Part shown: positions 7,928 through 31,020 of the stretch, piece after piece
How positions within the stretch are numbered: position 1 is the stretch's first letter
Layout of the letters: each line of letters opens with the position of its first letter
DNA from: Desulfatibacillum aliphaticivorans DSM 15576
GTDB taxonomy: Bacteria; Desulfobacterota; Desulfobacteria; Desulfobacterales; Desulfatibacillaceae
Reading direction: 5' to 3'
NCBI RefSeq assembly: GCF_000429905.1
Contig: NZ_AUCT01000030.1
Location: 16,899 to 48,898, forward strand
Length of the DNA stretch: 32,000 bases
Translations under genes and position numbers: made by a program
Notes under the pieces: generated by a model
Databases searched by the model: none
Told to the model about the DNA's origin: nothing
The model's input: only the letters and a program-made list of their open reading frames with translations

Positions 7928-10900
7928 ATGAAGATTTCGCGCAGGGGGTTTTTCAAGACCGCTGGAGCTGGGGCGGCGGCGGGCGTTCTGACCGGAAAGG
8001 CTGACAAGTCTCTTGCGGCCCTGCCGACTCGGGAAGACCCTTTTGCCAATGCGGTTTCCACGACCTCCGTATGCCCTTTCTGCGCCGTGGGCTGCGGCTC
8101 GATCATCAAGGCCCTGGACGGAAAAGTCGTGCAGATCGAAGGAGACCCGGAGCATCCCATCAACCAGGGGGCCTTGTGCTCCAAGGGCCTGGCGTTTTCG
8201 CAAACGGTCAACAGCCCGGGCAGGCTGCAAAAGGTTATGTATCGGGCGCCCGGCAGTGATCATTGGGAGGAGAAATCCTGGGAATGGGCCTTGCCCCGCA
8301 TGGCCGCGCTGATCAAGAAGACGCGGGACGCCTCCTTTGTGCAGGAAAAGGACGGCCGCACGGTCAACCGGACCGAAGGCCTTGCCTGCCTGGGCGGCGC
8401 GGCCCTGGATAATGAGGAGTGCTACCTTTACGCCAAGCTGGCCCGGGCTTTGGGAGTCGTCTACCTGGAGCATCAGGCGCGCATCTGACACAGCGCCACC
8501 GTCGCCAGTCTGGCGGCAACGTTTGGAAGAGGCGCCATGACCAACCATTGGATCGACATGGCCAACGCCGACGTGGTTATGGTCTGCGGCTCCAATGTGG
8601 TGGAAAACCATCCCATAGCCAGCCGGTGGCTGCAAAAAGCCCGGGAGCGAGGGGCCATAATCCTTTCTGTGGATCCCCGATACACCCGAACATCCTCTTT
8701 CGCCGACCATTATTGCCGTCTGCGAAGCGGCACGGACATCGCCTTTGTGGGCGGCATGATCCGCTACGCCCTGGAGCACAACCGAATTCATCGCGAATAC
8801 GTGGTCAACTATACCAACGCTTCGTTTATTATCTCGCCCGACTTTGAATTCCACGAAGGCTTGTTTTCAGGCTACGACCAGGAAGCCCGAAGCTACGACA
8901 AGTCCTCCTGGGCCTACGAATGCGACGCCTCGGGCGCTCCCCTCCGGGACGAAACCCTGACCCATGAACGCTGCGTGTTCCAGTTGCTGAAAAAGCATTT
9001 TGACCGGTACGATCCCCAGACCGTTTGCAGCATCACCGGCGCTCCGCAGGACGCCTACGAAAAGATTTGCGACCTGTACACATCGTCAGGCCAGGCGGGA
9101 AAAGCCGGAACCTGGCTGTACGCCATGGGCGCCACCCAAAGCACCCACGGCGCCCAGAACATCCGCACATACGCCATGCTGCAGCTTTTGCTGGGCAATA
9201 TCGGCGTGGCTGGCGGGGGCGTAAACGCCTTGCGGGGGGAGTCCAACGTTCAGGGCTCCACGGACATGGCTTTGCTCTTCCATATTCTGCCGGGCTACCT
9301 GAAAAACCCCAACGCGTCCGACCAAAGCCTGGAGCAATACCTCAAGCGATGCACGCCCGTCTCAAACGATCCAAAATCCGCCAACTGGTGGGGCAACACC
9401 CCCAAGTACATGGTTTCGCTGCTCAAGGCCTGGTTTGGAGATCACGCAACCCCGGAGAACGATTTCGCCTTTGACTGGCTGCCCAGGCACAGCGTGAACA
9501 GCTCCTATATTCCCTTGTTTGAAGCCATGCATAAGGGAGACGTCCAGGGCCTGATTTTGTTCGGGCAGAACCCGGCTGTCAGCGGCCCCCATGCTGGCAG
9601 GGAGCGGGAAGCGCTTTCCCGGCTGAAATGGATGATCGCCGTGGATCTTTTCGAGACTGAAACCGCCGGGTTCTGGAAGCGGCCGGGCGTGAACGCAAAG
9701 GACATCGACACCGAGGTTTTTCTACTGCCTGCGGCCGCCTCCGTAGAAAAGGAAGGCAGCATCACCAACAGCGGCCGCTGGGCCCAATGGCGGTATAAGG
9801 CAGTCGAGCCGCCCGGGGACGCCCGTCCCGACCTCTGGGTGCTGAATTCCCTGTTTAACGCGGTAAGAAAGGAATACCAGGCCGGCGGAGTCTTCCCGGA
9901 GCCCATTGTGCACTTGAATTGGGATTACGCCTTGGAAGGCGATCCCCACCATGAGCCCGATCCCCACATAGTCGCCAAAGAGGTGAACGGATATTTCACC
10001 CGCGAGACCACGGTCAAGGGCAAAACCTTTGCCAAGGGGGATCAGGTTCCGTCCTTCGCCTATCTGACGGACGACGGCGCCACTTGTTCGGGCAACTGGC
10101 TTTATTGCAACGCCTACACCGGCCCGGAAAAATCAGACAACCGCATGGCCCGCAGGGGAAGGGATGACGCCCCCAGCAACATCGGCCTGTTTCCCGAGTG
10201 GACCTGGTGCTGGCCGGTCAACCGGCGCATTCTATACAACCGGGCCTCCGTGGACCTGGAAGGCAGGCCCTGGAACCCGGAGCGCTTCGTTATCAGATGG
10301 AATCCCGAAGAATCCTCCTGGGAGGGGGACGTCCCGGACGGGGGATGGCCTCCGGGGTCAAAGCATCCCTTTATCATGCAGCCGGACGGCCACGGCCAGC
10401 TTTGGGCCAGATTTTTGGCCGACGGCCCCCTGCCCGAGCATTACGAGCCCTTTGAAAGCCCCATTGTCAACCCCATGTCCCGCAGCCAAAACAACCCGGC
10501 GGTTAAAATCTGGCGCGAAAAGCCGGGCGATAAGAACCCATTCGGAGATCGGGAGAAATTTCCCATCGTGGCCACGACCTATCGCATGACCGAGCATTGG
10601 CTGGGCGGCGCCATGACCCGCAACACGCCCTGGCTGGCGGAGCTGGTTCCCAACGTGTTTGCGGAAATCGGGACAGAGCTTGCGGAAGAGCACGGAATTT
10701 CCAACGGCGATAAAATCATTATAGAGTCGGCCCGGGGCGAAATCGAGGTCTACGCCCTGGTGAGCTCCCGCATTCCCTCCTTCAAGCTGGAAGGCCGCAC
10801 CGTGCATCAGGCGGGGCTGGTCTGGCATTTCGGATACCAGGGGATCGCCAAGGGGGACAGCGCCAACATGCTCACCCCCAACGTGGGCGACGCCAACACC

Positions 10901-10963
10901 ATGATTCCCGAATTCAAAGCCTTTTTATGCCGAATTAAAAAGGCGGAAAGGAGCCCGGCATGA
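7928..10963 (+). CDS. fdhA: Formate dehydrogenase catalytic (alpha) subunit, Mo/W-bis-PGD enzyme, selenocysteine-containing, Tat-exported
   Basis: ORFs 7883-8488 and 8537-10963 are in the same frame and are interrupted only by TGA at 8486-8488. Read-through gives LEHQARI-U-HSATVASLAATFGRGAMTNHW. From memory this is the FdnG/FdhA selenocysteine active-site context. The twin-arginine signal is MKISRRGFFKTAGAGAAAG. The N-terminal Fe-S motif is CPFCAVGCG..C. AGGAG lies 7 nt upstream of ATG 7928. The product is 1011 aa with U at residue 187. Confidence 0.9.
8493..8535 (+). promoter_or_regulatory. Candidate bacterial SECIS stem-loop directing Sec insertion at UGA 8486-8488
   Basis: The apical hairpin is GUCGCCA-GUC-UGGCGGC at 8501-8517. 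Its apex lies about 22 nt 3' of the UGA and the loop contains GU, as I recall for E. coli fdhF/fdnG SECIS. A lower stem pairs GCGCC (8493-8497) with GGCGC (8531-8535). I did not compute a fold. Confidence 0.5.
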
Positions 10964-11751
10964 AAGCATTGCTCATGGATACCACGCTTTGCATAGCCTG
11001 CCGGGGATGCCAGGTGGCCTGCAAGCAGTGGAACCGTCTGGACGCCGAGCAAACCTCCTTTTTTCACGGGGGCGGCTACCAGAATCCGGCGCACCGCTCG
11101 ACCCGGACCTGGAACCTCATCACCTTCAATGAAGTGGAAAACGGCCATGGCATGGACTGGGTGTTCGGCAGAAGGCAGTGCAACCATTGCATAGAACCCG
11201 CCTGCGTGACCGCATGCCCTGTCGGAGCCTTGACGAAAACCGCCGAAGGCCCGGTGCATTACGATGAATCCCGGTGCTTCGGCTGCCGGTACTGCCAGGT
11301 GGTCTGCCCGTTTAACGCCCCGCGTTTTGAATGGAACGATCCCAACCCGGAAATCCGCAAATGCACCATGTGCGCGGACCGCATCGCCATGGGCTCGGAA
11401 CCGGCTTGCTCCCAGTCGTGCACAACCAAGGCTTTGATCTTCGGCGATCGTGAAGAACTGCTGTCCCTGGCCAAAGAGCGCATTGCCAAAAGCCCCAACC
11501 GGTATGTCTCCCATATTTACGGAGAAAAGGAAGCGGGCGGCGCCTGCGTTTTGTATCTGGCCAAGGCGCCGTTCGAAAAAATGGGCTTTGCAACCGGACT
11601 TCCGGACAAACCCTTTTCCAGCGAGGTCAAAACCGCCATGGCCGCCATCCCCTTCGCCATCACCGGCAGCGCCCTGGCCTTGGGCGCTTTATACTGGGTT
11701 ATCAATCGCAGGCTGGAATCATACAAGGAAAGCTCCGAGGACGAATCATGA
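10960..11751 (+). CDS. fdhB: Formate dehydrogenase iron-sulfur (beta) subunit, 4x[4Fe-4S] ferredoxin-type with C-terminal membrane anchor
   Basis: ATGA start/stop overlap with fdhA, and AAAGGAG lies upstream. Four Cys clusters are present (CIACRGCQVAC, CNHCIEPACVTACP, CFGCRYCQVVCP, CTMCADR..C..SC). The C-terminal hydrophobic helix is AMAAIPFAITGSALALGALYWVI. Confidence 0.85.
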   Translation: MKALLMDTTLCIACRGCQVACKQWNRLDAEQTSFFHGGGYQNPAHRSTRTWNLITFNEVENGHGMDWVFGRRQCNHCIEPACVTACPVGALTKTAEGPVHYDESRCFGCRYCQVVCPFNAPRFEWNDPNPEIRKCTMCADRIAMGSEPACSQSCTTKALIFGDREELLSLAKERIAKSPNRYVSHIYGEKEAGGACVLYLAKAPFEKMGFATGLPDKPFSSEVKTAMAAIPFAITGSALALGALYWVINRRLESYKESSEDES

Positions 11752-13001
11752 ACCGAAAAACCGCTCCCATCCACCCCGGCCCGGCGCTTTTAGGCGGTTT
11801 GGCCTGCCTGGGCCTGTCCGCCGTCATCTATCGTTTTTGGGCGGGCATCGGCGCGGTCAGCAACCTGACCGACGGGCATCCCTGGGGATTTTGGGTGGCC
11901 ATAGACATTCTGGCGGGGGTGGCCCTGGCCGCCGGCGGCTTTGTGACGGCCGGGCTGGTGTATATTTTCGGAGGAAAACGGTTTGCGGAACTGGCCAGAC
12001 CTGCTGTTTTGACCGCGTTTTTGGGATATGTGATGTTCGTCCTGGGGCTGATCGTGGACATGGGCAGGCCCTGGCACATGCTGTACATTTTCGTGGGCAA
12101 CCACAACTCGCCTTTGTACGAAATAGGCTGGTGCGCGTCCCTGTACACCCTGGTCCTGGCCCTGGAGCTTTTGCCGCCGGTGTTTGAAAAACACTCCATG
12201 GACCGGGCGCAGCGCCTGTGGCGCAGCCTGTCCCCTTGGCTGGTCATTGTCCTGCTTTCCGTCTTCACCCTGGCCATGACCTATTCCTGGATCTGGCTTG
12301 CCATCGTCGCCAGCCTTTTATTGGCCTGGGAAATCCTCATGAGAAAAGGAGTCATGGGGCGCCAAAGACAAACGCCTATTTTGCTGATCGCGTCAGGCGT
12401 GATGCTGTCCTTTTTGCATCAGTCATCCTTGGGCAGTTTGTACTTAATGACCGCCCACTCCCTGAACCCCCTGTGGCACTCGCCGTTGCTGCCCATCATG
12501 TTTTTGATTTCCGCCATTGCAGCCGGGATGGCCATGGTTGCCTTGGAATCCCTGGCCGGGGAGCGTTTCCTGGGGCATAAGGCGCCCTTTTCCCCTTTGG
12601 TGGACATGGCCCGGATCGTTCCGGTTTTCCTGATTATCTACCTGGCCATAAAAGCCGGAGACATCCTGGCCTACGGGGATTGGCGCGGCTTGTTAAGCCT
12701 CAACCTGCAGTCCTTCATGTGGTGGGTTGAAATGGGCGCGGGCGTTGCTGCGCCGCTTATCCTGTATCTCACCCCCGGCTTTGTGCAGAAAAAAAGCGGG
12801 CTGGCCCTGGCCTCCGGCCTGGTGGTTGGCGGGCTTATCATCAACCGGGTGAACGTGGCCGTTATCGGCCTGCAGGTTCAACGCTGGCAAAGCTACTATC
12901 CCCACCCATTGGAAATCCTTATCACGATGGGAATCGTCTCAGCGGGCCTCCTGACCTACGCCTGGGCCATCGCCAATCTGCCAATCCACCCTCGGGAATA
13001 G
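11748..13001 (+). CDS. NrfD/PsrC-family polytopic membrane subunit (quinone-interacting anchor) of the formate dehydrogenase
   Basis: ATGA overlap with fdhB. The 417-aa protein is very hydrophobic with about 8-10 predicted helices. Its sequence style (GHPWGFWVAIDILAGVALAAGG, SPLYEIGWC) is typical of NrfD/HybB/PsrC-type subunits. Confidence 0.8.
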   Translation: MNRKTAPIHPGPALLGGLACLGLSAVIYRFWAGIGAVSNLTDGHPWGFWVAIDILAGVALAAGGFVTAGLVYIFGGKRFAELARPAVLTAFLGYVMFVLGLIVDMGRPWHMLYIFVGNHNSPLYEIGWCASLYTLVLALELLPPVFEKHSMDRAQRLWRSLSPWLVIVLLSVFTLAMTYSWIWLAIVASLLLAWEILMRKGVMGRQRQTPILLIASGVMLSFLHQSSLGSLYLMTAHSLNPLWHSPLLPIMFLISAIAAGMAMVALESLAGERFLGHKAPFSPLVDMARIVPVFLIIYLAIKAGDILAYGDWRGLLSLNLQSFMWWVEMGAGVAAPLILYLTPGFVQKKSGLALASGLVVGGLIINRVNVAVIGLQVQRWQSYYPHPLEILITMGIVSAGLLTYAWAIANLPIHPRE

Positions 13002-20857: not shown

Positions 20858-23800
20858 TTAGCTTTCCAAGGCTTTTCTGACCTGTTCGGCCAGCTTGTTT
20901 TGGGAAAACGGTTTTTCCAGAAAGTGCACATCCTTCTCCAGGACGCCGTGCCGGGCGATAAGGTCGGCCGTGTACCCGGACATAAACAAGACTTTCAGGG
21001 ACGGGTGGCGGGATTTGAGCTCCTCGGCCAAATCCTTGCCGTTCATGCCGGGCATGATGACATCCGTAATGAGCAATTGGATGCCGTCCTGGAACTCGTC
21101 AACCAGATTAAGGGCCTTCTGGGGAGAGGAAGCAGTCAGCACGCGGTAACCGGATCTTTCCAACATGCTTTTAGCCATGGAAATGATGGCTTTTTCATCC
21201 TCAACCAGCAGTACGGTTTCCCCTTTTCCCTCAAGGGGTTCAGCCGCCTGCAAAGCCTCTGACGCAGTCTCCGGCGAGCCATGCCTGGGCAGATAGATTT
21301 TAAACAAGGCGCCTTTCCCCGGCTCGCTTTCCACCAAAACGGCGCCATCATTTTGTTTGACGATGCCGTATATGGTGGACAGTCCCAGACCGGTCCCCCG
21401 GTCCGGCTTCTTGGTCGTGAAAAAGGGTTCGAAAATATTGGCCATGGTTTCCCGGTCCATGCCGCAGCCGTTATCTTTCACGCTCAAAAGCACATAATCG
21501 CCGGGTTTGAGATCCGGGGTGGGAATGCAGGCCTCTGGTGAAACTATTTCATTATGGACGCTTATGCATATTTCCCCGCCGCTGGAAATAGCGTCCCTGG
21601 CGTTGACGCACAGGTTGGCGAGCAACTGATCCAATTGGGACGGGTCCATGCGCACAAACCATGTCTCGCTCCCGGGTTTCCAGATCATCCGGATGTCCTC
21701 CCCAATCAGCCTGCGCAGCATTTTCAGCATGCCTTCCAAGGTTTCATTCAGATCCAAAACCCTGGGGGCGATGGTTTGTTTTCGCGCAAAAGCCAGCAAC
21801 TGCCGGGTGACTTCCGAGGATCTCATGGCGGCGTCCAGGATTTCCCTGAAGCTTTCATAAAAGGGATGGGCAGGGGGCATGCCGTCCAAAGCCAGCTCCG
21901 AGTATCCGATGATCACATTCAACATGTTGTTGAAATCATGAGCCACTCCGCCCGCCAACCTGCCCACGGACTCCATTTTTTGCGCTTGCGTCAATTGGGC
22001 ATGGAGTTGTTCCCGCTCGGCCTCGGCCTGCTTGCGCTCGGTAATATTGCGCGTAATGGTTGCCAAGTCGGTCATGTCGCCGGTGGCAATGTCTTCGGTA
22101 TGGAAAAGGTCGTAAAGAACGGGAATCGCTTCACCCGTTTTGAAATGGCGAAAGCGAAACTCCCCCGCCCATCGTCCATCCCGCATAACGGCGGGAAGAA
22201 TGGTGTTCCGGAGGTACGGCAAGTCATCAGGCAGGAAGTAATCTTCGATCCTGGTCTGCGCGACCGCCTCTTCCCCATCCAGCCCCACCATCGCCTGCCC
22301 GGCTGGATTCACGAAGTAAGCCGCCTGGTCCGTATCCGCCACGCCAATGAAATCCTGACTGCGTTTGATAATATTAGCCAGGACCTGATTGCGCCGTTCC
22401 AAATGCTTGCGTTTGGTGATGTCTATGGCAATTTCAAAGCGGACGTCCCTGCCATCCGGCCAACTGATGATGCGATCCGCTATCGCGTAATGCCGGTCAA
22501 CATGCTTGTTATGGAATTCCCAGTGATGGGAAGCGGGTTTTTGCTTCAATATAATATCGTTGGTGCAGAAAGGGCATGGCGAATCCAGGTTTTGTATGAT
22601 TTTGTAACATTTTGCGCCGAGGCAATCGGGCGGCAGCATTCGCTGGAAATAGCTGTTGACATACAACAACTCATGGGTTGCCGGGTCGGAGATGTAGATT
22701 ACCTCGTCAATGCTGTTGAATATGGCGAGCAGTTGCTCCCGTTCTTCCCGCAGCTTTTTTTCGGCCAGTTTATGTTCGGTGAGATCAATATCAATGCAGA
22801 ATAACTCGGGCTCGCGCCCCGGCAGGCGGACCAAGGCGTGGGATGAATAGACCTGGATGGGCGAACCGTCCTTGCGCATCAATTCCAGCTCGGACGGCGG
22901 GATCGCCTCTCCGGTTTCGGCCATTTGGCGCATCTCCGTTTGCACGGCTTCGCGCATGGCGGGAGGAATGATCAAGTCTATCAGGTTTTGGCCAAGGGCC
23001 TCTTCCTCGGTGTAGCCGTAAAAGGTTTCCGCGGCATGGTTCCAATAGCTTACCGCGCCGTCCAGGGCGTACCCCTGGACAGCCACCGAGGTCACATTCC
23101 GCAGCATCTCCTTGAAACGCATTTCGCTGGCTTTCAGCGCTTCTTCGGCTTGCTTTGCTTCGGTCACATCGCGGGCAATGCCGACATAACCCGTGACTTT
23201 CCCGGACTCATCCCTGTTGGGGGACCCCTTGGACATGTGCCACCGCCAGGACCCGTCGTGATGCCGGACCCGATATTCCAGACCGCCTTGTTTGCCGCCG
23301 TTCATCACCGTTTTTTCCAGGAAGGCGCGGCACAGGTGGACGTCCTCAGGGTGGACATAAGGCTCAAAGGACTTTCCCACGGCTCGTTCCGCCGGTTCGC
23401 CCAGGAACTCCAGCCAATTTGGGGAAACATAGGTAAACCGGCCTTCGGCGGAAAGGGCGTATACAATGTCGTTGGCATTCTCCACGAAAGAACGGAACAA
23501 CTGCTCGCTTTGACGCAAGGCCTCGCTGGTCCGCGCCAGTTTGATATGGGCGTAGGACATGCGGGAGATAAGATTGATGAGATTGCAGTAAAAGGTCATC
23601 ACCTGATCCACCGTTTTACGCGACCAGCGAGGGACGGATAGATAGGCCTTAAGATATGCCTCCTCGTCGAATCCATAACGGCGGGCCTGTTCCCGGAAGG
23701 CCGCGACGTCGGGCGTTTCATCCTCAAAGAAAAACTGACCGAGGAAGAGGTTGCCGGCGTGTCTCCCGCCAATGACAATCGGGGTCGCCATATCCCACAT

Positions 23801-25156
23801 GTTGTTCTTGCATTTATACAATTTGAAGGTTCCCGGCTCCACGGTGGATGCGAGAAGCGTGTCGCTTTCACGGCAATTTAAGGCGGTTTCGGGATGAACC
23901 CGGTGGAATTTGGTGCAGACATCCTGCCAGCCTGTCCCGACAAGGACATTTCCCTCCAGGTCGATAATGCCCACTCCGATGTCCGTCAATGCGTGAAAAT
24001 CGTCCATCAGGGATTGTATTTGATCAACGTCCAAAACGTCGGCGAGATTCAAACGCCCAATATCGCCTTCCGGATCAAGGAGGGCGTTCAGCTTGGTCCG
24101 CACCCTGCTTTCACTCTCCCGCAGGGCCTCTTCGGCTTTCTTGCGTTCCGTAATGTCGGCGGCGACGCTTAAAATGGCGGGCTTGCCGTCCCACTCAATG
24201 AATCTTGCCAGCACCTCCAGGGGAAAAGTGGATCCGTCCTTTCGGTGGTGAAGGACTTCAAAGCGCGCTTCCCCCTTCTCCCGGATTTTCCGGTAACGCT
24301 CCGGCAGCATGGCCCGGGTCTCCGGAGCGTCCAGGTTATGCAAATCCGTGTTCAAAAACTCTTCCTCGTCAGCGTAGCCGTGCAAGGTGTATGTGGCTTG
24401 GTTTCCATAATGAAACCGGCCCTTGAAGTCATGGATGGTTATGGAGGCCGGAGCCAGGTCCAGCATGCGCCCCAACAGGGCTATTCGTTTTTCAGCCTGT
24501 TGTTGGGCCGCCATTTTGTCCAGGGCGAACCCTATGTCATTGGCAAGCTCCCTGAACAGGACTTGCTCCTCCTGATTGCCGGCCAGTTCCTCTGGAACGG
24601 AGACGGACAACACGCCGTGGATGCGATCCTTGTACCCCAAACGGCAAGTAAAGACCGCCCATCCCCCGTACTCCCGCGTCAGCGGACACTCGGGACAATC
24701 CCGCCGGGCGTCCCGGACCACCGTCACCTCATCAGCCAGGAAAGATTGCCGCACACAGCGGGGATATGCACCCTGCATCAGTTGCCGCTCCAGCTGCAAA
24801 AAGCCGCCGCTGGCCCGGCCGGATTTAACGGCCGTGACCTGATGGGTTTGGGAGTCCGCCAGGGCGATCCAGGCGTTCTGGTAGCTTGGACCGGCCGTGA
24901 GTTGAATGCAGGCCTTTTCTATCAGGCTCAGGGGAGTCTCCTCGGAAACCAAAAGTTTGTTCACGCTGCGAATGGTCAGCAAAACATTCTTGATGTGCGC
25001 TTCCCGGGCCTCCGCCTCCGCCAGACGCACCACCAGGGTGTGATTATTCCCCACAATGGCGTCCACCTGACCGTCCCGAACGGCCTGCAGGGCGTCCTCA
25101 GCGCGTTTTAGCCTCTTTTGCAGTTCCTCATAGGACGGCGGCGTCTTGAACGTCAT
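20858..25156 (-). CDS. Hybrid sensor histidine kinase with a multi-sensor N-terminus (GAF, about 5 or more PAS, PocR-like domain), HisKA, HATPase_c and a C-terminal receiver
   Basis: H-box GGVAHDFNNMLNVIIGYSE. The ATPase N/G boxes are NLCVNARDA, DNGCGMD and GTGLGLS. The receiver is VLLVEDE...LLITDVIMPGMNG...KVLFMSGY. Several PAS-type modules are present (repeated ITERKxAEEAL linkers). ATG 25156 is preceded by GGAGAG; the track start 25171 is a TTG. Confidence 0.9.
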   Translation of the reverse strand: MTFKTPPSYEELQKRLKRAEDALQAVRDGQVDAIVGNNHTLVVRLAEAEAREAHIKNVLLTIRSVNKLLVSEETPLSLIEKACIQLTAGPSYQNAWIALADSQTHQVTAVKSGRASGGFLQLERQLMQGAYPRCVRQSFLADEVTVVRDARRDCPECPLTREYGGWAVFTCRLGYKDRIHGVLSVSVPEELAGNQEEQVLFRELANDIGFALDKMAAQQQAEKRIALLGRMLDLAPASITIHDFKGRFHYGNQATYTLHGYADEEEFLNTDLHNLDAPETRAMLPERYRKIREKGEARFEVLHHRKDGSTFPLEVLARFIEWDGKPAILSVAADITERKKAEEALRESESRVRTKLNALLDPEGDIGRLNLADVLDVDQIQSLMDDFHALTDIGVGIIDLEGNVLVGTGWQDVCTKFHRVHPETALNCRESDTLLASTVEPGTFKLYKCKNNMWDMATPIVIGGRHAGNLFLGQFFFEDETPDVAAFREQARRYGFDEEAYLKAYLSVPRWSRKTVDQVMTFYCNLINLISRMSYAHIKLARTSEALRQSEQLFRSFVENANDIVYALSAEGRFTYVSPNWLEFLGEPAERAVGKSFEPYVHPEDVHLCRAFLEKTVMNGGKQGGLEYRVRHHDGSWRWHMSKGSPNRDESGKVTGYVGIARDVTEAKQAEEALKASEMRFKEMLRNVTSVAVQGYALDGAVSYWNHAAETFYGYTEEEALGQNLIDLIIPPAMREAVQTEMRQMAETGEAIPPSELELMRKDGSPIQVYSSHALVRLPGREPELFCIDIDLTEHKLAEKKLREEREQLLAIFNSIDEVIYISDPATHELLYVNSYFQRMLPPDCLGAKCYKIIQNLDSPCPFCTNDIILKQKPASHHWEFHNKHVDRHYAIADRIISWPDGRDVRFEIAIDITKRKHLERRNQVLANIIKRSQDFIGVADTDQAAYFVNPAGQAMVGLDGEEAVAQTRIEDYFLPDDLPYLRNTILPAVMRDGRWAGEFRFRHFKTGEAIPVLYDLFHTEDIATGDMTDLATITRNITERKQAEAEREQLHAQLTQAQKMESVGRLAGGVAHDFNNMLNVIIGYSELALDGMPPAHPFYESFREILDAAMRSSEVTRQLLAFARKQTIAPRVLDLNETLEGMLKMLRRLIGEDIRMIWKPGSETWFVRMDPSQLDQLLANLCVNARDAISSGGEICISVHNEIVSPEACIPTPDLKPGDYVLLSVKDNGCGMDRETMANIFEPFFTTKKPDRGTGLGLSTIYGIVKQNDGAVLVESEPGKGALFKIYLPRHGSPETASEALQAAEPLEGKGETVLLVEDEKAIISMAKSMLERSGYRVLTASSPQKALNLVDEFQDGIQLLITDVIMPGMNGKDLAEELKSRHPSLKVLFMSGYTADLIARHGVLEKDVHFLEKPFSQNKLAEQVRKALES

Positions 25157-25460
25157 CGTGCTTCTCTCCAAACAGGGCTAGGATTTTTTCCTTATCGCTC
25201 AAGTTGCCGTAAACCAGGGATTCCATGCCGTGAGCCTCGATCTCCAGGGCGGGCGTAAGATATATTCCTTTTTCCAGGGCGACTTCAGGGGTTGCAACAA
25301 CATCCACGATGGCTACTTTCAAATTCCATTGTGATATATTTTCCTGGATCATTTTGATGTTTTGCAAAGCGATACGGGAGTTGGGGGCGTCTCCGGCAAT
25401 GTAAAGCACGGCCCGGCAATCCGGCAGGCCGGAGCCGCAATTCTGGTCATGAGCCGTCAT
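25128..25460 (-). CDS. kaiB: KaiB-family protein (thioredoxin-like fold clock/timer component)
   Basis: LYIAGDAPNSRIALQNIK...LKVAIVDVVATPEVALEKGIYLTPAL...GNLSDKEKIL parallels Synechococcus KaiB (LYVAGNTPNS...ATPTL...GDLSDREKVL, from memory). ATG 25460 is preceded by AGGGAGG. The gene overlaps the kaiC stop by 14 nt. Confidence 0.85.
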   Translation of the reverse strand: MTAHDQNCGSGLPDCRAVLYIAGDAPNSRIALQNIKMIQENISQWNLKVAIVDVVATPEVALEKGIYLTPALEIEAHGMESLVYGNLSDKEKILALFGEKHDDVQDAAVL

Positions 25461-26916
25461 CTGAGGCCTCCCTTTCAATTACCTTCACACCATGGCTGGT
25501 AATCCTGAAGTCATGAATCATGTTGGAATGGCTGCGGCCGCGTGATTTCAGTATAACGAGTTTTCTTTCGTATCCCCGGTCCGTTTCCACATTGCGCAGC
25601 AAAATCACCGTGTCAATAATGGATGAAAGATCCAGGCCGGTTATCTCTCCCTCCCTGGGGGACGGCGAGGACAGGTTCGTAAGCAGGACCGTTATTCCCT
25701 GCTTCTTGCAATGGGTGACCAGCCTGAGAAGATAATCAAAGGCGGAATGCTTGGAGCCCATCCGGCGGCAGGCCGAAATGGCGTCCAGGATCAAATGCCG
25801 GGGCTGGAAATCCTCGATGGCCTTGAAAGCCTGGATCAGGTGTTCTTCTATCCCCTGGGACTCCGGCATGGAGGAAATGAACTTTAGATGGCCGGTGTCC
25901 AGAGCCGCGTTCATGTCCAGGCCGGGGCTGAGCATGCAGCTTGCCAGCGCGTCCCAGGACTCCTCAAAATCCAGGTATAAAACCTTTTCATGCAAGGATG
26001 TTATGGCTCTGCAATAGGAACAGGCAAAGGTGGTTTTGCCGGTCCCGCTGGCGCCGGTGATCAACGTGCAGGAATTACGGCGATATCCCCCGGAAATCAG
26101 GGCGTCCAGGTCTTTAACCCCTGAAGTGATGGACTCTCCAAACGCCCGGTGCTGTAAATCGGCCTGGGTTACGGGGATGATCCACAAACCTCTGCCGGTA
26201 ATCCCAAAAGGATATTCGTTCCTTCCATAGGAGGAACCCCGATATTTCACCACGCGCAAGCGCCTTGTGACCACCTGTTCCGAAACCCTTTGGTCCAGGT
26301 GCACGACGCAGTCAGCCATATATTCCAAAAACTCATGATGCCGAAAGGTCCGGGCGCCGGCGTTCGCCTTGACCGTCACCATGGCGGTCAGTCCGGAATC
26401 CAGAATCCACTCATGAAGCAAATGGAACTCCCCCCGCTCCCTGGCCTCGTCTCCAAGGAGCCTCAACAGGACGTCCGGTGCGTCAATGACAATATTCTCA
26501 GCTTTCATCTCTGCGATTTTATTCTCCAGGATGCCCAGCAAGCCCTGCAGATCGAAGTCTCCGCTAAACACAGCGTCCGGTTTAATGCGCGCGCTTATAA
26601 GACTGAGGCGCCCTTGCTCCTCCAGGGCCTTGACGTCCCACCCAAAAGAGCTCGCGTAGCGTCGCAGGGCGTCCTTCCGCTCCTCAAAGGTCAGTAGAAT
26701 TCCGGGGCCCCCGTTCACTGCGCCCCTGACGAGAAACTCCAGGCCGAACATGGTCTTTCCCGTACCCGGCCCTCCCACAAGCAACGTCATGGCCCCCTTG
26801 GGGACGCCCCCCATGAGAACTTCGTCAAACCCCTTGATTCCGGTAGCTTCCTTGGGCGCCTTCCCCGTACAGGCGGAGGCAGGGCCCTGCAATTCGTTAG
26901 ATTCCATGGGCATCAT
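25447..26916 (-). CDS. kaiC: KaiC-family double RecA-like ATPase / autokinase
   Basis: Two duplicated domains, each with a Walker A (GGPGTGKT; GASGTGKT) and catalytic EE pair (LLTFEERKDAL; YLDFEESWDAL). The C-terminal motif EITGLDLSSIIDTVILL aligns with the KaiC phosphosite region. The start is ambiguous among ATGs 26916/26913/26907 after AAGGAAG; the track start 26973 is a TTG. Confidence 0.9.
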   Translation of the reverse strand: MMPMESNELQGPASACTGKAPKEATGIKGFDEVLMGGVPKGAMTLLVGGPGTGKTMFGLEFLVRGAVNGGPGILLTFEERKDALRRYASSFGWDVKALEEQGRLSLISARIKPDAVFSGDFDLQGLLGILENKIAEMKAENIVIDAPDVLLRLLGDEARERGEFHLLHEWILDSGLTAMVTVKANAGARTFRHHEFLEYMADCVVHLDQRVSEQVVTRRLRVVKYRGSSYGRNEYPFGITGRGLWIIPVTQADLQHRAFGESITSGVKDLDALISGGYRRNSCTLITGASGTGKTTFACSYCRAITSLHEKVLYLDFEESWDALASCMLSPGLDMNAALDTGHLKFISSMPESQGIEEHLIQAFKAIEDFQPRHLILDAISACRRMGSKHSAFDYLLRLVTHCKKQGITVLLTNLSSPSPREGEITGLDLSSIIDTVILLRNVETDRGYERKLVILKSRGRSHSNMIHDFRITSHGVKVIEREASDDGS

Positions 26917-27001
26917 CACTTCCTTTATTCCGATCTTGCGGAATAGAGAGGGATCATTCTTCCTGGGCCGCAAGCACAGTGGGTGAAATCAACAGCGGCA
27001 G

Positions 27002-27031
27002 GATGAAAACAGGATGCATCCTGGATTCATC
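27002..27031. promoter_or_regulatory. 30-bp near-perfect palindrome upstream of kaiC (operator or leader hairpin candidate)
   Basis: GATGAA-aac-AGGATG|CATCCT-gga-TTCATC, with a perfect 14-bp core CAGGATGCATCCTG at 27010-27023. It lies about 86-115 nt upstream of the preferred kaiC start. An AT-rich stretch beyond it (27060-27240) contains a possible TTGGGG-N17-TATTAT promoter on the minus strand. Confidence 0.35.
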
Positions 27032-27396
27032 GCCGTCCCTTCCGTCTGACGCATCGCCTGAAGGAGACACATTAATCTATTGATATAATACAAAAATAAT
27101 GCTCCATCCCCAAAATAAAAGGCGGCTGTCAGCGCTCTGCGGGACGATCTCGCAATCATAAATCCTATCCACGGGAATTATCCCTTACATAATCTTAACA
27201 TCCGTAATCTTTTCTGATCAAGATTAAATATACGGCGTCTGTTTGCCGTCGGCATTGATTGGCCGGCTGCGCACGATTGCGAAACCGCCTGCTCCTGTTT
27301 GCAGGAGCCGCGAACCACTCTTGGTGAAACTCCAAAGGCTGTGAGATATCCAAAAGAGGCCCATGGGCGTGATTATTGTTTTTTTTGCAGGAATTC

Positions 27397-30189
27397 TTAC
27401 CGCGTCAGGGTCCGATAAATTCTGGGCAGTTTGTGGGGCAGTTCGCGGACGTCGGAGATGAGGTTGTGGTGCACTCCCCCGTAGATGAGATCCAGGTTGA
27501 TGCTGGTCTGCAGGTTGACCGTAATGGCGTGCACGTGGACCTGCTGGGACCTCGCTTCGGCGATGGCCTTGCGGGTGTCGGCAATGCTGTATTGGCCCTT
27601 GTACTCCAGGTCGTTGGGGAAACCGTCGCTCAGCACGATCATCAAACGCACCTTGGAGGGAACCTGGGAAAGCACGTGGGCTGCATGGCGGATGGCCGGC
27701 CCCATGCGGGTGTTGCGGGAAGGCGCCATGCCGCTGATGCGCTGCTTGACCTCCGGGGTCATGGCCTCTTCAAAATCCTTGATCCGGGTGTAATCCACCC
27801 TAAGCCTGCCGGCGCCGGAAAAGCCTGCGATTGCAAAGGAGTCCCCGACGGCGCCCAGGGCTTCGCAGAACAGGACGATGGCTTCCTTTTCCACGTCCAG
27901 GACGCTTTTTTCGGAGCCCGCCGCCAGGTTGCTGGTGGAGCGGGAAAGGTCCACCAAAAGCAGCACGGACACGTCGCGGATTTGCTTGACCCGTTTGATG
28001 TACAGCCTTTCGGACGGGGTTCTGCCCATCCTGCGATCCACGGCGTAGTCGATCAAGGCCCGATAGTCGAAGTCGTCCCCTTCCACCCAGTGGCGGAGAA
28101 TGGCCAGCCCCTGGGGCCGGAGCAACTCAAAACTCTTTCGGATGTTTTTCACCAGCCCGGAGTGCTCCTTGAGCGAGGCGTCGTAAAACTCCCCATGGCT
28201 GGGCAGGCCGGGCGAAGCCACCACCCGGCAGTAGTCGGGCAAATAATCCTGGGAATTGTGGTCCCATTCCTTGTACCAGAAGACCGGGGCGTTCAGGTCG
28301 TCGTCCTGGGGCAGGGAGTGGGCCAGGTCGCCCGAGTCCCTGAGGGAGGAAAAATCCATGCGCTCCTCCTGCCCGGGCTCCAAAGGCTGGGGCTCGGTCG
28401 CTCCCTGCTCCGGAGGCTGCACGATGAGGTCGCGCAAATCCTGTTCGGTCAGGGTTCCGTGCTGGGAGTCCATGCGTTTTTTCAAATCGGACCGGAGGGC
28501 GTAGACGCCCATTTGCGACAGCTTGGCCATCAACTGGGCCGCCCGGCGGTCGTTTTCCGGCATGGGCGCGTTTCCGCCCGCCAGGATGGTTCGGCCGAAG
28601 GGTACCTGCATGGGCTGGTATTCCCTGACCAGATCCTTGGCCATCATGACGCCGTACCAGGACTGCAAAAATCCCAGCCACGGGCCGTAAAGATCCGCAG
28701 TCAGGGCCGCGCTTTGATGCACGTCCGGCGGATCGCCTTCCATGGATTGAAAGGCGTTTAAAGAAGTTTGGATGATCCGTGCAACATCGTCATCCAGGTG
28801 GAATTTTTCCATATCCATACCCAGCGCTGCGGGGGCGTAAAGCCAGGTCATGGGAGGCGCGCCCTGCTCCAGGATGCGCTCCATTTCCGCGATCATATAG
28901 GGAAATGCGCTCTTGGCGAAGCCGGGGTATTTTTCCAAAAGCAGGCGCCCTACCCTGGCGTGCTCCAGGGCGACGAACAGGTCCCGGGCGATCTGAAAGG
29001 CGTCGAATTCCGATAAAAACAAAAACAGGTCCGAGTATTGGGACTGGGTTTCGGGCAGGCTGAATTCCAGGCCCCGGGCCCGGCATGCAAACACAGCCTT
29101 TGTCAGGTCGAAATCATAGGTTTCGAACTCGCACAGCCCGGCTTCCAGGCGGGCCAGGGCTTTGTACAGGGCGGTGTTGTTCTCCTTATCCGGGAAAAAG
29201 CCCATTTCCCCGGGAAGATACACGGCCCTGCCGTCGGTGATTGACAGGGTGTGACGGCCCACGCCCCGGTTGTGAAGAGGCTCGATGGGCTTGACGTTCA
29301 GTCCCTTGCCGGTCCTGGCGCGCAAATACCGGGTGATGACCTGGCGATTGGATTCCAGGGAAACCGTAACCTGCAGGCTGGAAAAGGCGTCAGCGCCCAG
29401 CTTGGATTCCAGGCGCAAAAACTTCATGGCCGCGTCCCGGCTGTGGGAAAGCCGGCCCAGGCCTTCGTCCGTAAAAATCTCCAGGGCTTCTTTGTCCAGA
29501 AGGTGCACGCCTTTTTCCAGCCCATCGCACAGGGGCTCGATGCAATCCAGGCTGACCTTGCCGACCTTGGCCAGGGCCTGCATCTGAAAGCATCGCCTGG
29601 CTTTGGGCAGGTTTTTGGCGGCCTTTGGCAATAATTGAGAAAAAAGCAGGCGCTGATGGTAGGTCATGCTTTGATGGAACACAACGCGGACCAGGTGCAG
29701 GTAGGCCGCAGCGGCGTCCGGGTCGTCCCGGTGCATGAGCCAGGAAAAAGCCTCCAAGGGCCGCTCCATGGCGTGGGCGCTCCATTTTTTGACGGAGTAA
29801 ATGGCGCCGATCAACCGGGCGCCCATGTTTTTTTTGCCCGAAAGAATCGCCAAAGGCATGGATTCGGCCACCAGCTTGCCCAGGGTGGCGCCTTCCCGGC
29901 CCGCATGATTGACCAGGTTGCAATACAGGTTGAATCGCCGGTCCGGCTCGTCCAGAATCCGGGCCATGCCCAGGCAATACGCCTTGCCGAAGGCGGTTTC
30001 CGAAGCCAGGGCCTTAATGCCGTATTCCGCCAGTCGGGGAATGCGTTCCAGTCGGGTCTTGGAAAGGAGAAGGCCTCGCACCAGTTCCGCGGTTTCGGGA
30101 TCAGCGATGGAAAGGGGCTCCATCAAGGCCCGAATCCTGGCCAGATTCTCCTGTGCATTTACGCCGGGCTGACCCATGGCTGGCCCCAT
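27397..30189 (-). CDS. NorD/CbbO-like protein: long helical N-terminal region plus C-terminal von Willebrand factor A domain
   Basis: 930 aa. The C-terminal VWA domain has a MIDAS motif (LLLVDLSRSTS ... GFSG ... IVLSDGFPND). The start lies 3 nt after the stop of the NorQ/CbbQ-like ATPase, which is the classic MoxR-class AAA+/VWA pairing. Confidence 0.8.
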   Translation of the reverse strand: MGPAMGQPGVNAQENLARIRALMEPLSIADPETAELVRGLLLSKTRLERIPRLAEYGIKALASETAFGKAYCLGMARILDEPDRRFNLYCNLVNHAGREGATLGKLVAESMPLAILSGKKNMGARLIGAIYSVKKWSAHAMERPLEAFSWLMHRDDPDAAAAYLHLVRVVFHQSMTYHQRLLFSQLLPKAAKNLPKARRCFQMQALAKVGKVSLDCIEPLCDGLEKGVHLLDKEALEIFTDEGLGRLSHSRDAAMKFLRLESKLGADAFSSLQVTVSLESNRQVITRYLRARTGKGLNVKPIEPLHNRGVGRHTLSITDGRAVYLPGEMGFFPDKENNTALYKALARLEAGLCEFETYDFDLTKAVFACRARGLEFSLPETQSQYSDLFLFLSEFDAFQIARDLFVALEHARVGRLLLEKYPGFAKSAFPYMIAEMERILEQGAPPMTWLYAPAALGMDMEKFHLDDDVARIIQTSLNAFQSMEGDPPDVHQSAALTADLYGPWLGFLQSWYGVMMAKDLVREYQPMQVPFGRTILAGGNAPMPENDRRAAQLMAKLSQMGVYALRSDLKKRMDSQHGTLTEQDLRDLIVQPPEQGATEPQPLEPGQEERMDFSSLRDSGDLAHSLPQDDDLNAPVFWYKEWDHNSQDYLPDYCRVVASPGLPSHGEFYDASLKEHSGLVKNIRKSFELLRPQGLAILRHWVEGDDFDYRALIDYAVDRRMGRTPSERLYIKRVKQIRDVSVLLLVDLSRSTSNLAAGSEKSVLDVEKEAIVLFCEALGAVGDSFAIAGFSGAGRLRVDYTRIKDFEEAMTPEVKQRISGMAPSRNTRMGPAIRHAAHVLSQVPSKVRLMIVLSDGFPNDLEYKGQYSIADTRKAIAEARSQQVHVHAITVNLQTSINLDLIYGGVHHNLISDVRELPHKLPRIYRTLTR

Positions 30190-30192
30190 CCT

Positions 30193-31020
30193 CTAAAACA
30201 GGTCTTCGATGAGATCGAATATGGTTTCTGACAACCCCGGATCATCGGTAATGGGCAGGCACATGCTGGTCAGGCAGGCGTTCTTGGGGGAAATGCCCTG
30301 CCGGATCAACTGGGCCGCGTAGATAAGCAGGCGGGTGCTGGCGCCTTCGGCAAGCCCCTGCTCACGCAGGTTGCGGATGCGATGGGCCAGGCCCACCAGG
30401 GACAAGGCGGTTTCTTCGTCCACGCCCCCTTCCTTTTCCACGATTTTAGCCTCGTCCTCCTGGGAGGGATACTCGAACTCCAGGCACACAAAACGCTGGC
30501 GGGTGCTCTGCTTAAGATCCTTGACCACGGACTGGTAGCCGGGGTTGTACGAAACCACCAGCAAAAAATCCGGGTGAGCTTCCACCACCTCGCCCTTTTT
30601 ATCCAGGGAGAGAATACGGCGGTCGTCGGTCAGGGGATGGATGACCACGGTGGTGTCCTTACGGGCTTCCACCACTTCGTCCAGATAGCAGATGGCGCCC
30701 ATGCGCACGGCCCGGGACAAGGGGCCGTCCACCCACACGGTTTCGTCGTCTTTTAAAAGGTAGCGGCCCAAGAGGTCGGAGGCGAACAAGTCCTCATGGC
30801 ACGAGACGGTGACCAGGGGCCTGCCCAGCTTGTAGGCCATGTGCTGCACAAAGCGGGTTTTTCCGCATCCTGTGGGGCCTTTCAGCATGACCGGCAGCCT
30901 GGCGTTATATGCAGCGGTGAAAAGGGGCTTTTCGTCGCCCACCGGCAAATAAAAGGGCTCGTTGCTGATCATGTAAGCGGAAGAGTCGGGAGTTTGTGTA
31001 TTTTCGAGGGCCTGGCTCAT
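30193..31020 (-). CDS. CbbQ/NorQ/NirQ-type MoxR-class AAA+ ATPase
   Basis: 275 aa. Walker A is [13 protein letters not shown] and Walker B is [13 protein letters not shown]. Other family-typical stretches are [22 protein letters not shown] and STR.LI.AA. ATG 31020 is preceded by AAGGAA. Confidence 0.85.

Follow-up and report, generated by a model that had tools for sequence, protein, structure and literature searches.

Outside the cyanobacteria, kai genes are known from operons that lack kaiA. A 'kaiC-B-PAS/HK operon' with a single predicted promoter has been described in Rhodobacter sphaeroides, as in Rhodopseudomonas palustris (Ma et al., PMC4794148), and, in kaiA-less bacteria, 'numerous examples' have been noted in which PAS genes share an operon with kai homologues (PMC9478674). 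In R. palustris, whose KaiC autophosphorylates, the system has been described as a proto-circadian timer (PMC4794148). R. sphaeroides KaiC autophosphorylates without KaiA through an exposed A-loop, and once its C-terminal coiled coil is removed, the protein exchanges nucleotides and phosphorylates itself as before (5.5 vs 7.4 per hour, 5.5 being the value of the delta-coil protein), but autodephosphorylation is almost abolished (PMC10076222). As to partner contacts, the PAS domains of KidA bind fold-switched KaiB (PMC9478674), and a Pseudomonas KaiC binds the PAS domain of a neighbouring kinase (bioRxiv 10.1101/2022.01.26.477890). For sulfate reducers, no experimental work on Kai proteins turned up in our literature search. 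Here, we analysed a stretch of 32,000 nt from the sulfate reducer Desulfatibacillum aliphaticivorans DSM 15576 (contig NZ_AUCT01000030.1; hereafter, the window), in which the minus strand of positions 20858..26916 holds three consecutive open reading frames (ORFs) for KaiC, KaiB and a hybrid histidine kinase. This type of module is already described, and its clade is already annotated as KaiC and KaiB in databases. What goes beyond the known is a Ser-Ser KaiC with neither A-loop nor coiled coil, a KaiB-linked kinase motif shared with R. sphaeroides, a KaiB-kinase fusion protein, and a strain that has naturally lost kaiCB.

The kaiC-kaiB-kinase unit and its relation to known Kai systems

The three genes follow one another on one strand in the order kaiC, kaiB, PAS-containing kinase, with the overlaps listed in Table 1 as read off the sequence, which bears out the original prediction of three overlapping minus-strand genes. 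All three ORFs are intact, each has its own ribosome-binding site, and the arrangement leaves no room for internal promoters, as in the operons of the R. palustris and R. sphaeroides type. The kinase gene is the last of the unit, and the next gene (DUF362/4Fe-4S) is convergent. Judged from the gene layout only, a promoter driving all three genes would have to lie in the 480-nt gap ahead of kaiC. Scanning for consensus promoters and terminators yielded no more matches than chance, and we therefore infer co-transcription from the layout alone. Among the window ORFs scanned, neither a KaiA domain nor a kinase with a KaiB-like N-domain was found, in agreement with the predicted absence of KaiA and of a SasA-type kinase, and no second kaiB or kaiC lies within the window. 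Rfam and tRNA scans of the window gave no matches. The gene order is indeed the reverse of the cyanobacterial one, as had been pointed out, but it is no oddity: the order kaiC-kaiB-PAS/HK is already the published norm outside cyanobacteria and is therefore not surprising. On the annotated R. sphaeroides KD131 plasmid pRSKD131A, kaiC is followed by a KaiB-family gene and then by the gene of an HWE kinase, and the same succession of kaiC, kaiB and kinase is seen on plasmids of Pararhizobium, Rhizobium BG4 and Falsirhodobacter.

KaiC is the full-length double-domain protein that had been predicted. Pfam PF06745 matches it in 2 stretches (316 bits, E 1.6e-94), and it reaches 461.5 bits against NCBIfam NF006799, 'circadian clock protein KaiC', the cutoff of which is 408; against the cyanobacterial-type model TIGR02655 it stays at 252.8 bits, below the cutoff of 546. 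Synechococcus elongatus KaiC (100% identical to PDB 1u9i) was aligned with the window protein, R. sphaeroides KaiC and relatives from the databases. In this alignment, the CI residues K54/T55 (Walker A), E78/E79 (catalytic), D145 (Walker B) and R226 (arginine finger) are all present, and so are K294/T295 (Walker A), E318/E319 (catalytic), D378 (Walker B) and R459 (arginine finger) in CII. T426 is conserved, and the phosphosite pair is S431/S432, where Synechococcus has Ser-Thr. Ser-Ser phosphosites are the hallmark of the kaiC2 subgroup (PMC10076222; PMC5520375). By these aligned residues, CI and CII of KaiC each have all that is required to bind and hydrolyse ATP, and the residues required for Ser-Ser autophosphorylation are complete as well.

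The end of KaiC (residue 489) corresponds to about residue 488 of Synechococcus KaiC, some 10 residues past CII, so that the protein has no A-loop (Synechococcus 487-497) and no KaiA-binding C-terminal tail. A C-terminal coiled coil of the R. sphaeroides type is likewise absent from the window KaiC and from its clade of 470-490-aa proteins; it is present in R. sphaeroides KaiC and in the relatives P0102-P0120 (587-594 aa). Synechococcus KaiC is hyperphosphorylated once its A-loop is removed, as cited in PMC10076222. Given that the window KaiC is naturally without A-loop and coil, it would, by analogy with these proteins, autophosphorylate constitutively and independently of KaiA when ATP is available. 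KaiC is 59-65% identical to 470-490-aa proteins of Desulfobacterales, other Thermodesulfobacteriota and Anaerolineales, 53% identical to a protein of the planctomycetote Sedimentisphaera (P0100), 60% identical to a Ca. Sabulitectum sequence by tblastn, and 49-52% identical to the coil-bearing clade. As pairwise identities only, with no tree, window and Synechococcus KaiC share 31% and R. sphaeroides and Synechococcus KaiC 38%, compared with 37% between the window and R. sphaeroides proteins. The closest solved structure is that of R. sphaeroides KaiC (8db3/8dba, 322 bits). NCBI and JGI already label close homologues, for example that of Desulfatiferula olefinivorans, 'circadian clock protein KaiC'.

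KaiB had been called canonical, and this description does not hold. The protein passes Pfam PF07689 (35.2 bits, cutoff 27) but fails both NCBIfam equivalogs, with 38.2 bits against a cutoff of 110 for NF006798 and 37.8 against 145 for TIGR02654; being so far under the equivalog cutoffs, it represents a divergent KaiB subfamily. The KaiBs of related loci have in common the pattern LF.AGDAPNSR...TPALQ...YGNLSD, and over the whole length the window protein aligns with cyanobacterial and R. sphaeroides KaiB at ~30-35% identity. An AlphaFold2 (AF2) model predicts the order beta-alpha-beta-alpha-beta-beta-alpha, that is, the thioredoxin-like KaiC-binding topology, at low confidence (predicted local distance difference test, pLDDT, of 66; 3-sequence alignment). 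The structures nearest to this low-confidence model are KaiC-bound KaiB-RS (8fwj_M), the fold-switch-stabilised 5jyt and 5jwo, and Legionella Lpp1115 (4kun). The model is weak evidence for the binding fold and is silent on fold switching.

For the kinase, the domain scan agrees with the predicted 1432-aa multi-PAS/GAF/PocR hybrid. The order is N-terminal helix motif, GAF, PAS, PocR, PAS array, HisKA, HATPase_c and REC, and the transmitter and receiver domains are all above their Pfam cutoffs (HisKA 32.3 bits vs 26.9; HATPase_c 72.3 vs 26.4; Response_reg 73.9 vs 30.2). The acceptor Asp of the receiver is intact, and its Ser and Lys are also kept. Of the kinases at the loci examined, that of the window alone has PocR. 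The GAF domain was modelled by AF2 with a pLDDT of 88 (aa ~45-220), and Foldseek matched it to the GAF domains of NifA, Nlh, DosS and phytochromes. In the subfamily alignment, C83, C154 and C157 are invariant, C134 is nearly invariant, and R63 and W96 are conserved. Because of these conserved cysteines, the Cys4 GAF is probably a metal or redox sensor, with an Fe-S cluster, a metal or thiols as candidates. A HMMER scan of 1.84 billion cluster representatives returned 4312 relatives of the first-230-residue region. The GAF type is common and often internal to proteins unrelated to kai genes, and as an element specific to Kai it was rejected: the subfamily is widespread and mostly found away from kai genes. 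Further on, a PAS-like domain at aa ~830-860 of the kinase (window ~22560-22660, minus strand) contains the insert C-x4-C-x11-C-x2-C (CLGAKCYKIIQNLDSPCPFC), a possible metal site.

Compared with the described systems, the locus is most like that of R. sphaeroides KD131, with which it shares the gene order, the absence of KaiA, the Ser-Ser pair, the catalytic residues and the motif at the kinase N-terminus; R. sphaeroides also provides the best solved match of KaiC and, for the low-confidence KaiB model, the nearest structure. However, the window KaiC lacks the ~50-80-aa coiled-coil tail that makes the dodecamer and drives autodephosphorylation, the R. sphaeroides kinase is a 478-aa PAS-HWE protein and not a HisKA hybrid with GAF, PocR and PAS, and R. 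sphaeroides is a phototroph whereas the window host is a strict anaerobe. The KaiA-less three-gene layout is also that of R. palustris, where, in contrast, the phenotype is tied to light/dark nitrogen fixation. With cyanobacterial KaiABC, the locus has in common a double-domain KaiC, sites equivalent to T426 and S431, a predicted thioredoxin-like binding fold of KaiB and histidine-kinase partners, but it differs in having no KaiA and no A-loop, in the low KaiC identity and TIGR02655 score, and in the opposite gene order. Unlike SasA, the window kinase has no KaiB-like N-domain, the place of which is taken by the helix motif and GAF. CikA has a GAF domain, a kinase core and a C-terminal receiver-like domain, and the window kinase has them in the same order; its receiver, however, keeps the acceptor Asp that the CikA pseudo-receiver lacks. 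A CikA-like pseudo-receiver was considered as the KaiB contact and rejected, the receiver being canonical and the R. sphaeroides kinase having none.

The KaiC-like proteins of Pseudomonas also lie beside a (hybrid) kinase, the PAS domain bound by KaiC being the N-terminal one of that kinase, and show a stress phenotype (bioRxiv 10.1101/2022.01.26.477890), but Pseudomonas has no KaiB, which in the window stands between KaiC and kinase. Legionella pneumophila Lpp1114/Lpp1115 is a KaiA-less kaiCB pair of a non-phototroph, and the role reported for Legionella KaiBC, as cited in PMC5520375, is stress resistance. The KaiB model lies near 4kun; at the sequence level, KaiB and Lpp1115 are only marginally alike (E 0.008).

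A kinase N-terminal motif associated with KaiB

Within the first ~40 residues of the kinase (aa ~7-40) lies a motif with the consensus YEEL..RL..AE.AL.A.R.G.VDAIVG, which the AF2 monomer model predicts to be a helix followed by a disordered stretch around VDAIVG. The motif is found at the N-termini of kinases encoded after kaiB in Thermodesulfobacteriota, Anaerolineae-type metagenome-assembled genomes (MAGs) and Alphaproteobacteria. Word-indexed searches returned 1 match for the kinase N-domain and 2 for KaiB, and a full phmmer scan with locus analysis was used instead. A hidden Markov model (HMM) was built from the first 53 aa and run on six-frame translations of all fetched loci. It matched kinase N-termini only (n = 31), 26 of them directly after kaiB; two further matches are the second tandem kinase of the same cluster (L002, L017), and the other three have no kaiB in the available DNA (L028, L030, L054). 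In both tandem clusters (L002:9756-14963 and L017:2106-7660), the two kinases past kaiB each bear the motif, suggesting that a KaiBC pair need not be limited to a single kinase. At L030:206-780, a ribbon-helix-helix antitoxin and a MazF/PemK toxin are encoded right before the motif kinase, at the position expected for kaiB, and the contig ends there.

The association with kaiB also appears where kinases with and without the motif are compared. Most related GAF kinases found elsewhere lack the motif. All three motif-bearing representatives that were looked up (50%, 31% and 35% identity) lie directly behind kaiB, and none of the four motif-less GAF control kinases lies near kai genes. A metagenome sample was collected by a scan seeded with GAF patterns only (80 loci, then de-duplicated), and in this sample kaiB was directly upstream at 5/8 motif-bearing loci vs 1/58 motif-less loci (Fisher p = 3.6e-5). 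The lone motif-less case, L090:2212-4019, has an upstream KaiB gene and then a membrane-anchored PAS-GAF kinase.

Moreover, the motif is not confined to one kinase type. In Alphaproteobacteria, the HWE or HisKA kinases of four kai operons begin with it, namely those of R. sphaeroides KD131, Pararhizobium, Rhizobium BG4 and Falsirhodobacter, and in the R. sphaeroides kinase it reads DELRRRLHEAEETLKAIRQGDVDALVVG. It also heads the kinase behind a coil-bearing KaiC (L015), where it is followed by PAS instead of GAF. When the 80-aa N-terminus of the Rhizobium kinase was searched by tblastn against 72,556 plasmids, all 12 matches were kai-operon kinases; the 64-aa N-terminal peptide of the Pararhizobium kinase matched itself only. 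The motif is absent from the kinases beside the kai genes of Aquisphaera (order kinase-kaiB-kaiC) and Sphingobium (kaiC only).

The metagenomic protein P0182 is a fusion in which a KaiB domain stands ~10 residues ahead of a motif-GAF-PAS-HisKA-HATPase-REC body. At its locus (L024:4001-7990, Logan SRR9030901) no kaiC lies within 4 kb, and a CHASE-PAS-HWE kinase and a REC protein are encoded upstream. No description of the motif was found in the literature searched. It is possible, though we would put the chance somewhat short of even, that [PS][ST]YEEL..RL..AE.AL.A[IL]R.G.VD[AT][IV].G is a general and so far undescribed docking element that tethers otherwise unrelated kinases to KaiB or KaiB-KaiC in KaiA-less operons. 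The kinases so tethered may include HisKA hybrids in Thermodesulfobacteriota, Anaerolineae-type MAGs and Ca. Sabulitectum, and HWE kinases in Alphaproteobacteria.

Conservation, loss and genomic surroundings of the arrangement

Among 14 relatives of reference genomes, 11 (L001-L010, L012) have kaiC, kaiB and a large kinase with the same N-terminal region, usually with 4-nt overlaps. In the other three, the order is the same but frameshifted (L014), a kaiCB remnant precedes an intact kinase (L013), or the downstream gene is a different one (L011). The arrangement is kept across phyla at 40-65% protein identity, the first 230 kinase residues are 40-52% identical to the kinase N-termini of other loci, and the kinases of the relatives are mostly HisKA-HATPase-REC hybrids with one to about twelve PAS domains. 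The locus of the coil-bearing KaiC also has the order kaiC, kaiB, kinase.

Two loci have no kinase. In an Anaerolineae MAG (L011:9702-12175), kaiC-kaiB is followed by a REC-MshEN-T2SSE ATPase of the PilB/MshE-like type, and in Sedimentisphaera salicampi (L016:8774-14659) by glycosyltransferases. The T2SSE ATPase and the glycosyltransferases are alternative partners of the same KaiC clade.

The locus L013 belongs to Desulfatibacillum alkenivorans DSM 16219 (Thermodesulfobacteriota, Desulfobacterales), to which the flanks of the window are ~94% identical at the DNA level. In this strain (L013:6794-8429, corresponding to window 25215-27473), an 848-bp insertion carries an ORF with an NYN domain and is flanked by a 75-bp duplication of the 3' end of the VWA gene. 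One deletion (window 27122-26444) has removed the promoter-proximal region and 5' end of kaiC, and a second (window 26128-25215) the 3' half of kaiC and the 5' part of kaiB, so that the residue of kaiCB is a 168-aa fusion remnant. The kinase, in contrast, is full length and shares 92% identity with the window kinase over the first 230 residues. The frameshifts that disrupt kaiC or kaiB in L014 and L078 are in line with this loss.

Table 1. Position and content of the features of the kaiC-kaiB-kinase unit in the window
Feature	Window position	Strand	Description
Intergenic region upstream of kaiC	26917..27396	-	480 nt, AT-rich
kaiC	25447..26916	-	489 aa; ATG at 26916, AAGGAAG ahead
KaiC domains CI and CII			two RecA-like KaiC domains; CI ~aa 24-248, CII ~aa 262-480
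Codons of KaiC S431 and S432	25621..25626	-	placed by alignment to Synechococcus KaiC
kaiB	25128..25460	-	110 aa; ATG at 25460, 6 nt past GGGAGG; overlaps the kaiC stop by 14 nt
Hybrid sensor histidine kinase	20858..25156	-	1432 aa; ATG at 25156 after GGAGAG; overlaps the kaiB 3' end by 29 nt
N-terminal KaiB-linked motif	25049..25138	-	kinase aa 7-36; PSYEELQKRLKRAEDALQAVRDGQVDAIVG
GAF domain	24512..25009	-	kinase aa ~50-215; C83, C134, C154, C157 (last two in CxxCP), R63, W96
PAS and PocR	23552..24448	-	PAS aa ~237-337, PocR aa ~373-535; PocR E 2e-53
Array of ~4 PAS domains	22037..23515	-	one with a C-x4-C-x11-C-x2-C insert
HisKA, HATPase_c and REC	20879..21964	-	H-box VAHDFNN; REC LLITDVIMP; CckA-like core, 418 bits

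Upstream of kaiC and on the same strand (27397-31020), the window encodes a 275-aa AAA protein of the CbbQ/NorQ type and, as the other member of a NorD/CbbO-like pair, a protein of 930 aa with a VWA domain. These genes were considered as part of the module and rejected, as they are kept beside it only in the sister strain DSM 16219. None of the neighbouring genes (AAA, VWA, DUF362/4Fe-4S, molybdopterin enzyme) is conserved beside kaiC in other taxa, and they are therefore placed outside the module. The molybdopterin enzyme, encoded further away within 7928-13001 on the plus strand, is an oxidoreductase with a Tat signal and an in-frame TGA in EHQARI*HSATV, the motif of a selenocysteine-type formate dehydrogenase alpha subunit; the rest of this stretch encodes a 4Fe-4S subunit (10960-11751) and then an NrfD-like membrane subunit (11748-13001). 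With this nearby formate dehydrogenase and the flanks so close to those of D. alkenivorans, the host is, as predicted, a non-phototrophic anaerobe.

Proposed mechanism and alternatives

Our preferred reading, towards which the evidence tips slightly, is that KaiC and KaiB form a KaiA-independent phosphorylation/ATPase switch or hourglass that is co-expressed with the multi-sensor hybrid kinase and docked to it through the N-terminal motif. By analogy with the biochemistry of R. sphaeroides and the A-loop genetics of Synechococcus, the KaiC hexamer would be expected to autophosphorylate constitutively when ATP is plentiful, and KaiB in a thioredoxin-like fold would be expected to bind the post-hydrolysis CI ring of phospho-KaiC. 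The phosphorylation and nucleotide state of KaiC would then report the ATP/ADP level or the time elapsed since an environmental reset, which would make the module an hourglass or metabolic switch and not a free-running clock. As comparative genomics suggests, the kinase would dock on KaiB or KaiB-KaiC through its conserved N-terminal motif of ~40 residues. There, the Kai state would be combined with the input of the kinase's own sensors, namely the Cys4 GAF (redox or metal), PocR and several PAS domains, and the combined signal would leave by His-Asp phosphorelay via the C-terminal receiver.

Several observations weigh against this reading. The kinase of DSM 16219 persists after the loss of kaiCB; KaiBC is thus dispensable in that lineage, and the kinase does not strictly depend on it. 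Since removal of the coil nearly ends autodephosphorylation in R. sphaeroides, the coil-less KaiC may not cycle unless another route exists. On the side of the motif, the disordered VDAIVG segment in the model is compatible with a docking element but proves nothing, three of the 31 HMM matches have no kaiB directly upstream, and part of the motif statistics comes from loci that were found via KaiC and are hence not independent. On the side of KaiB, the predicted binding fold comes from the low-confidence model described above. AlphaFold2, moreover, tends toward the fold-switched topology of KaiB.

The alternative that survives best, although we give it less than half the credence of the preferred reading and regard it as rather unlikely, places the kinase on the input side: its GAF, PocR and PAS domains would sense redox, metals or hydrocarbon-derived ligands, the kinase would reset or gate KaiBC by binding or phosphotransfer, and the output would run through unlinked partners. 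The co-operonic kinase of R. sphaeroides has been proposed as a transducer of redox signals to KaiBC (PMC5520375; PMC10931921), the sensor array with its Cys4 GAF is unusually rich, and the operon holds no cognate DNA-binding response regulator and no histidine phosphotransfer (Hpt) protein. Against this, the kinase is a full hybrid transmitter whose receiver is intact, and phosphorelays that lead to an output typically begin with such a protein. The cyanobacterial kinases that touch KaiB or KaiC, SasA and CikA, are output devices, and the survival of the DSM 16219 kinase beyond kaiCB is easier to understand if the kinase has an output role of its own. The kinase had been put forward as the obvious output candidate; as a signalling partner it stands, but an output role is not established, given the redox input also proposed (PMC5520375).

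It is improbable that the module responds to stress or energy state as a switch that measures no time, in which KaiC-KaiB would regulate the kinase according to ATP/ADP, as suggested for the Legionella and Pseudomonas homologues. KaiC homologues outside cyanobacteria have been tied to resistance to oxidative, salt or osmotic stress (PMC5520375; bioRxiv 10.1101/2022.01.26.477890), the host is a dark-living anaerobe with no light-related genes nearby, the coil-less KaiC may be unable to dephosphorylate alone, and the low-confidence KaiB model also resembles Legionella Lpp1115. However, this explanation overlaps the preferred reading, an hourglass being such a switch with slow kinetics. Anaerobes of sediments, moreover, do meet diel cycles of redox and oxygen.

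A self-sustained circadian oscillator of the cyanobacterial type is very improbable: KaiC and KaiB are both there with intact catalytic residues, but KaiA is not, nor is there an A-loop or C-terminal tail on which a KaiA-like activator could act, the TIGR02655 score (253) is far from its cutoff (546), and the closest characterised system needs an external cue (PMC10076222). Least credible of all is that the genes are unlinked in function or the module is decaying or non-functional in this strain, for the deletion remnant in DSM 16219 and the frameshifts in L014 and L078 are outweighed here by three intact, overlapping ORFs, an arrangement kept across phyla at such low protein identity, and the existence of the KaiB-kinase fusion.

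How clocks evolved from simpler timers is a question in which non-cyanobacterial Kai proteins hold a central place, and experiments so far have dealt with only a few phototrophs and pathogens. The window provides an intact kaiC-kaiB-kinase unit in a cultivable sulfate reducer, and DSM 16219 amounts to a naturally occurring kaiCB-deleted strain whose kinase is intact; the two strains form a ready pair for testing the role of KaiBC in the dark. KaiC itself is a natural 'delta-coil, delta-A-loop' protein, which tests the published proposal that phosphorylation needs no KaiA once the A-loop is exposed or missing, and raises the question of how such a KaiC is reset. The kinase motif offers a testable handle on signal transfer from Kai proteins to two-component signalling in the absence of KaiA. 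If docking through the motif proves true, it would be a third solution to the coupling of clock and kinase, beside SasA with its KaiB-like domain and CikA with its pseudo-receiver, and the motif together with the A-loop-less, coil-less Ser-Ser KaiC would define a large uncharacterised clade of Kai signalling in dark, anoxic habitats.

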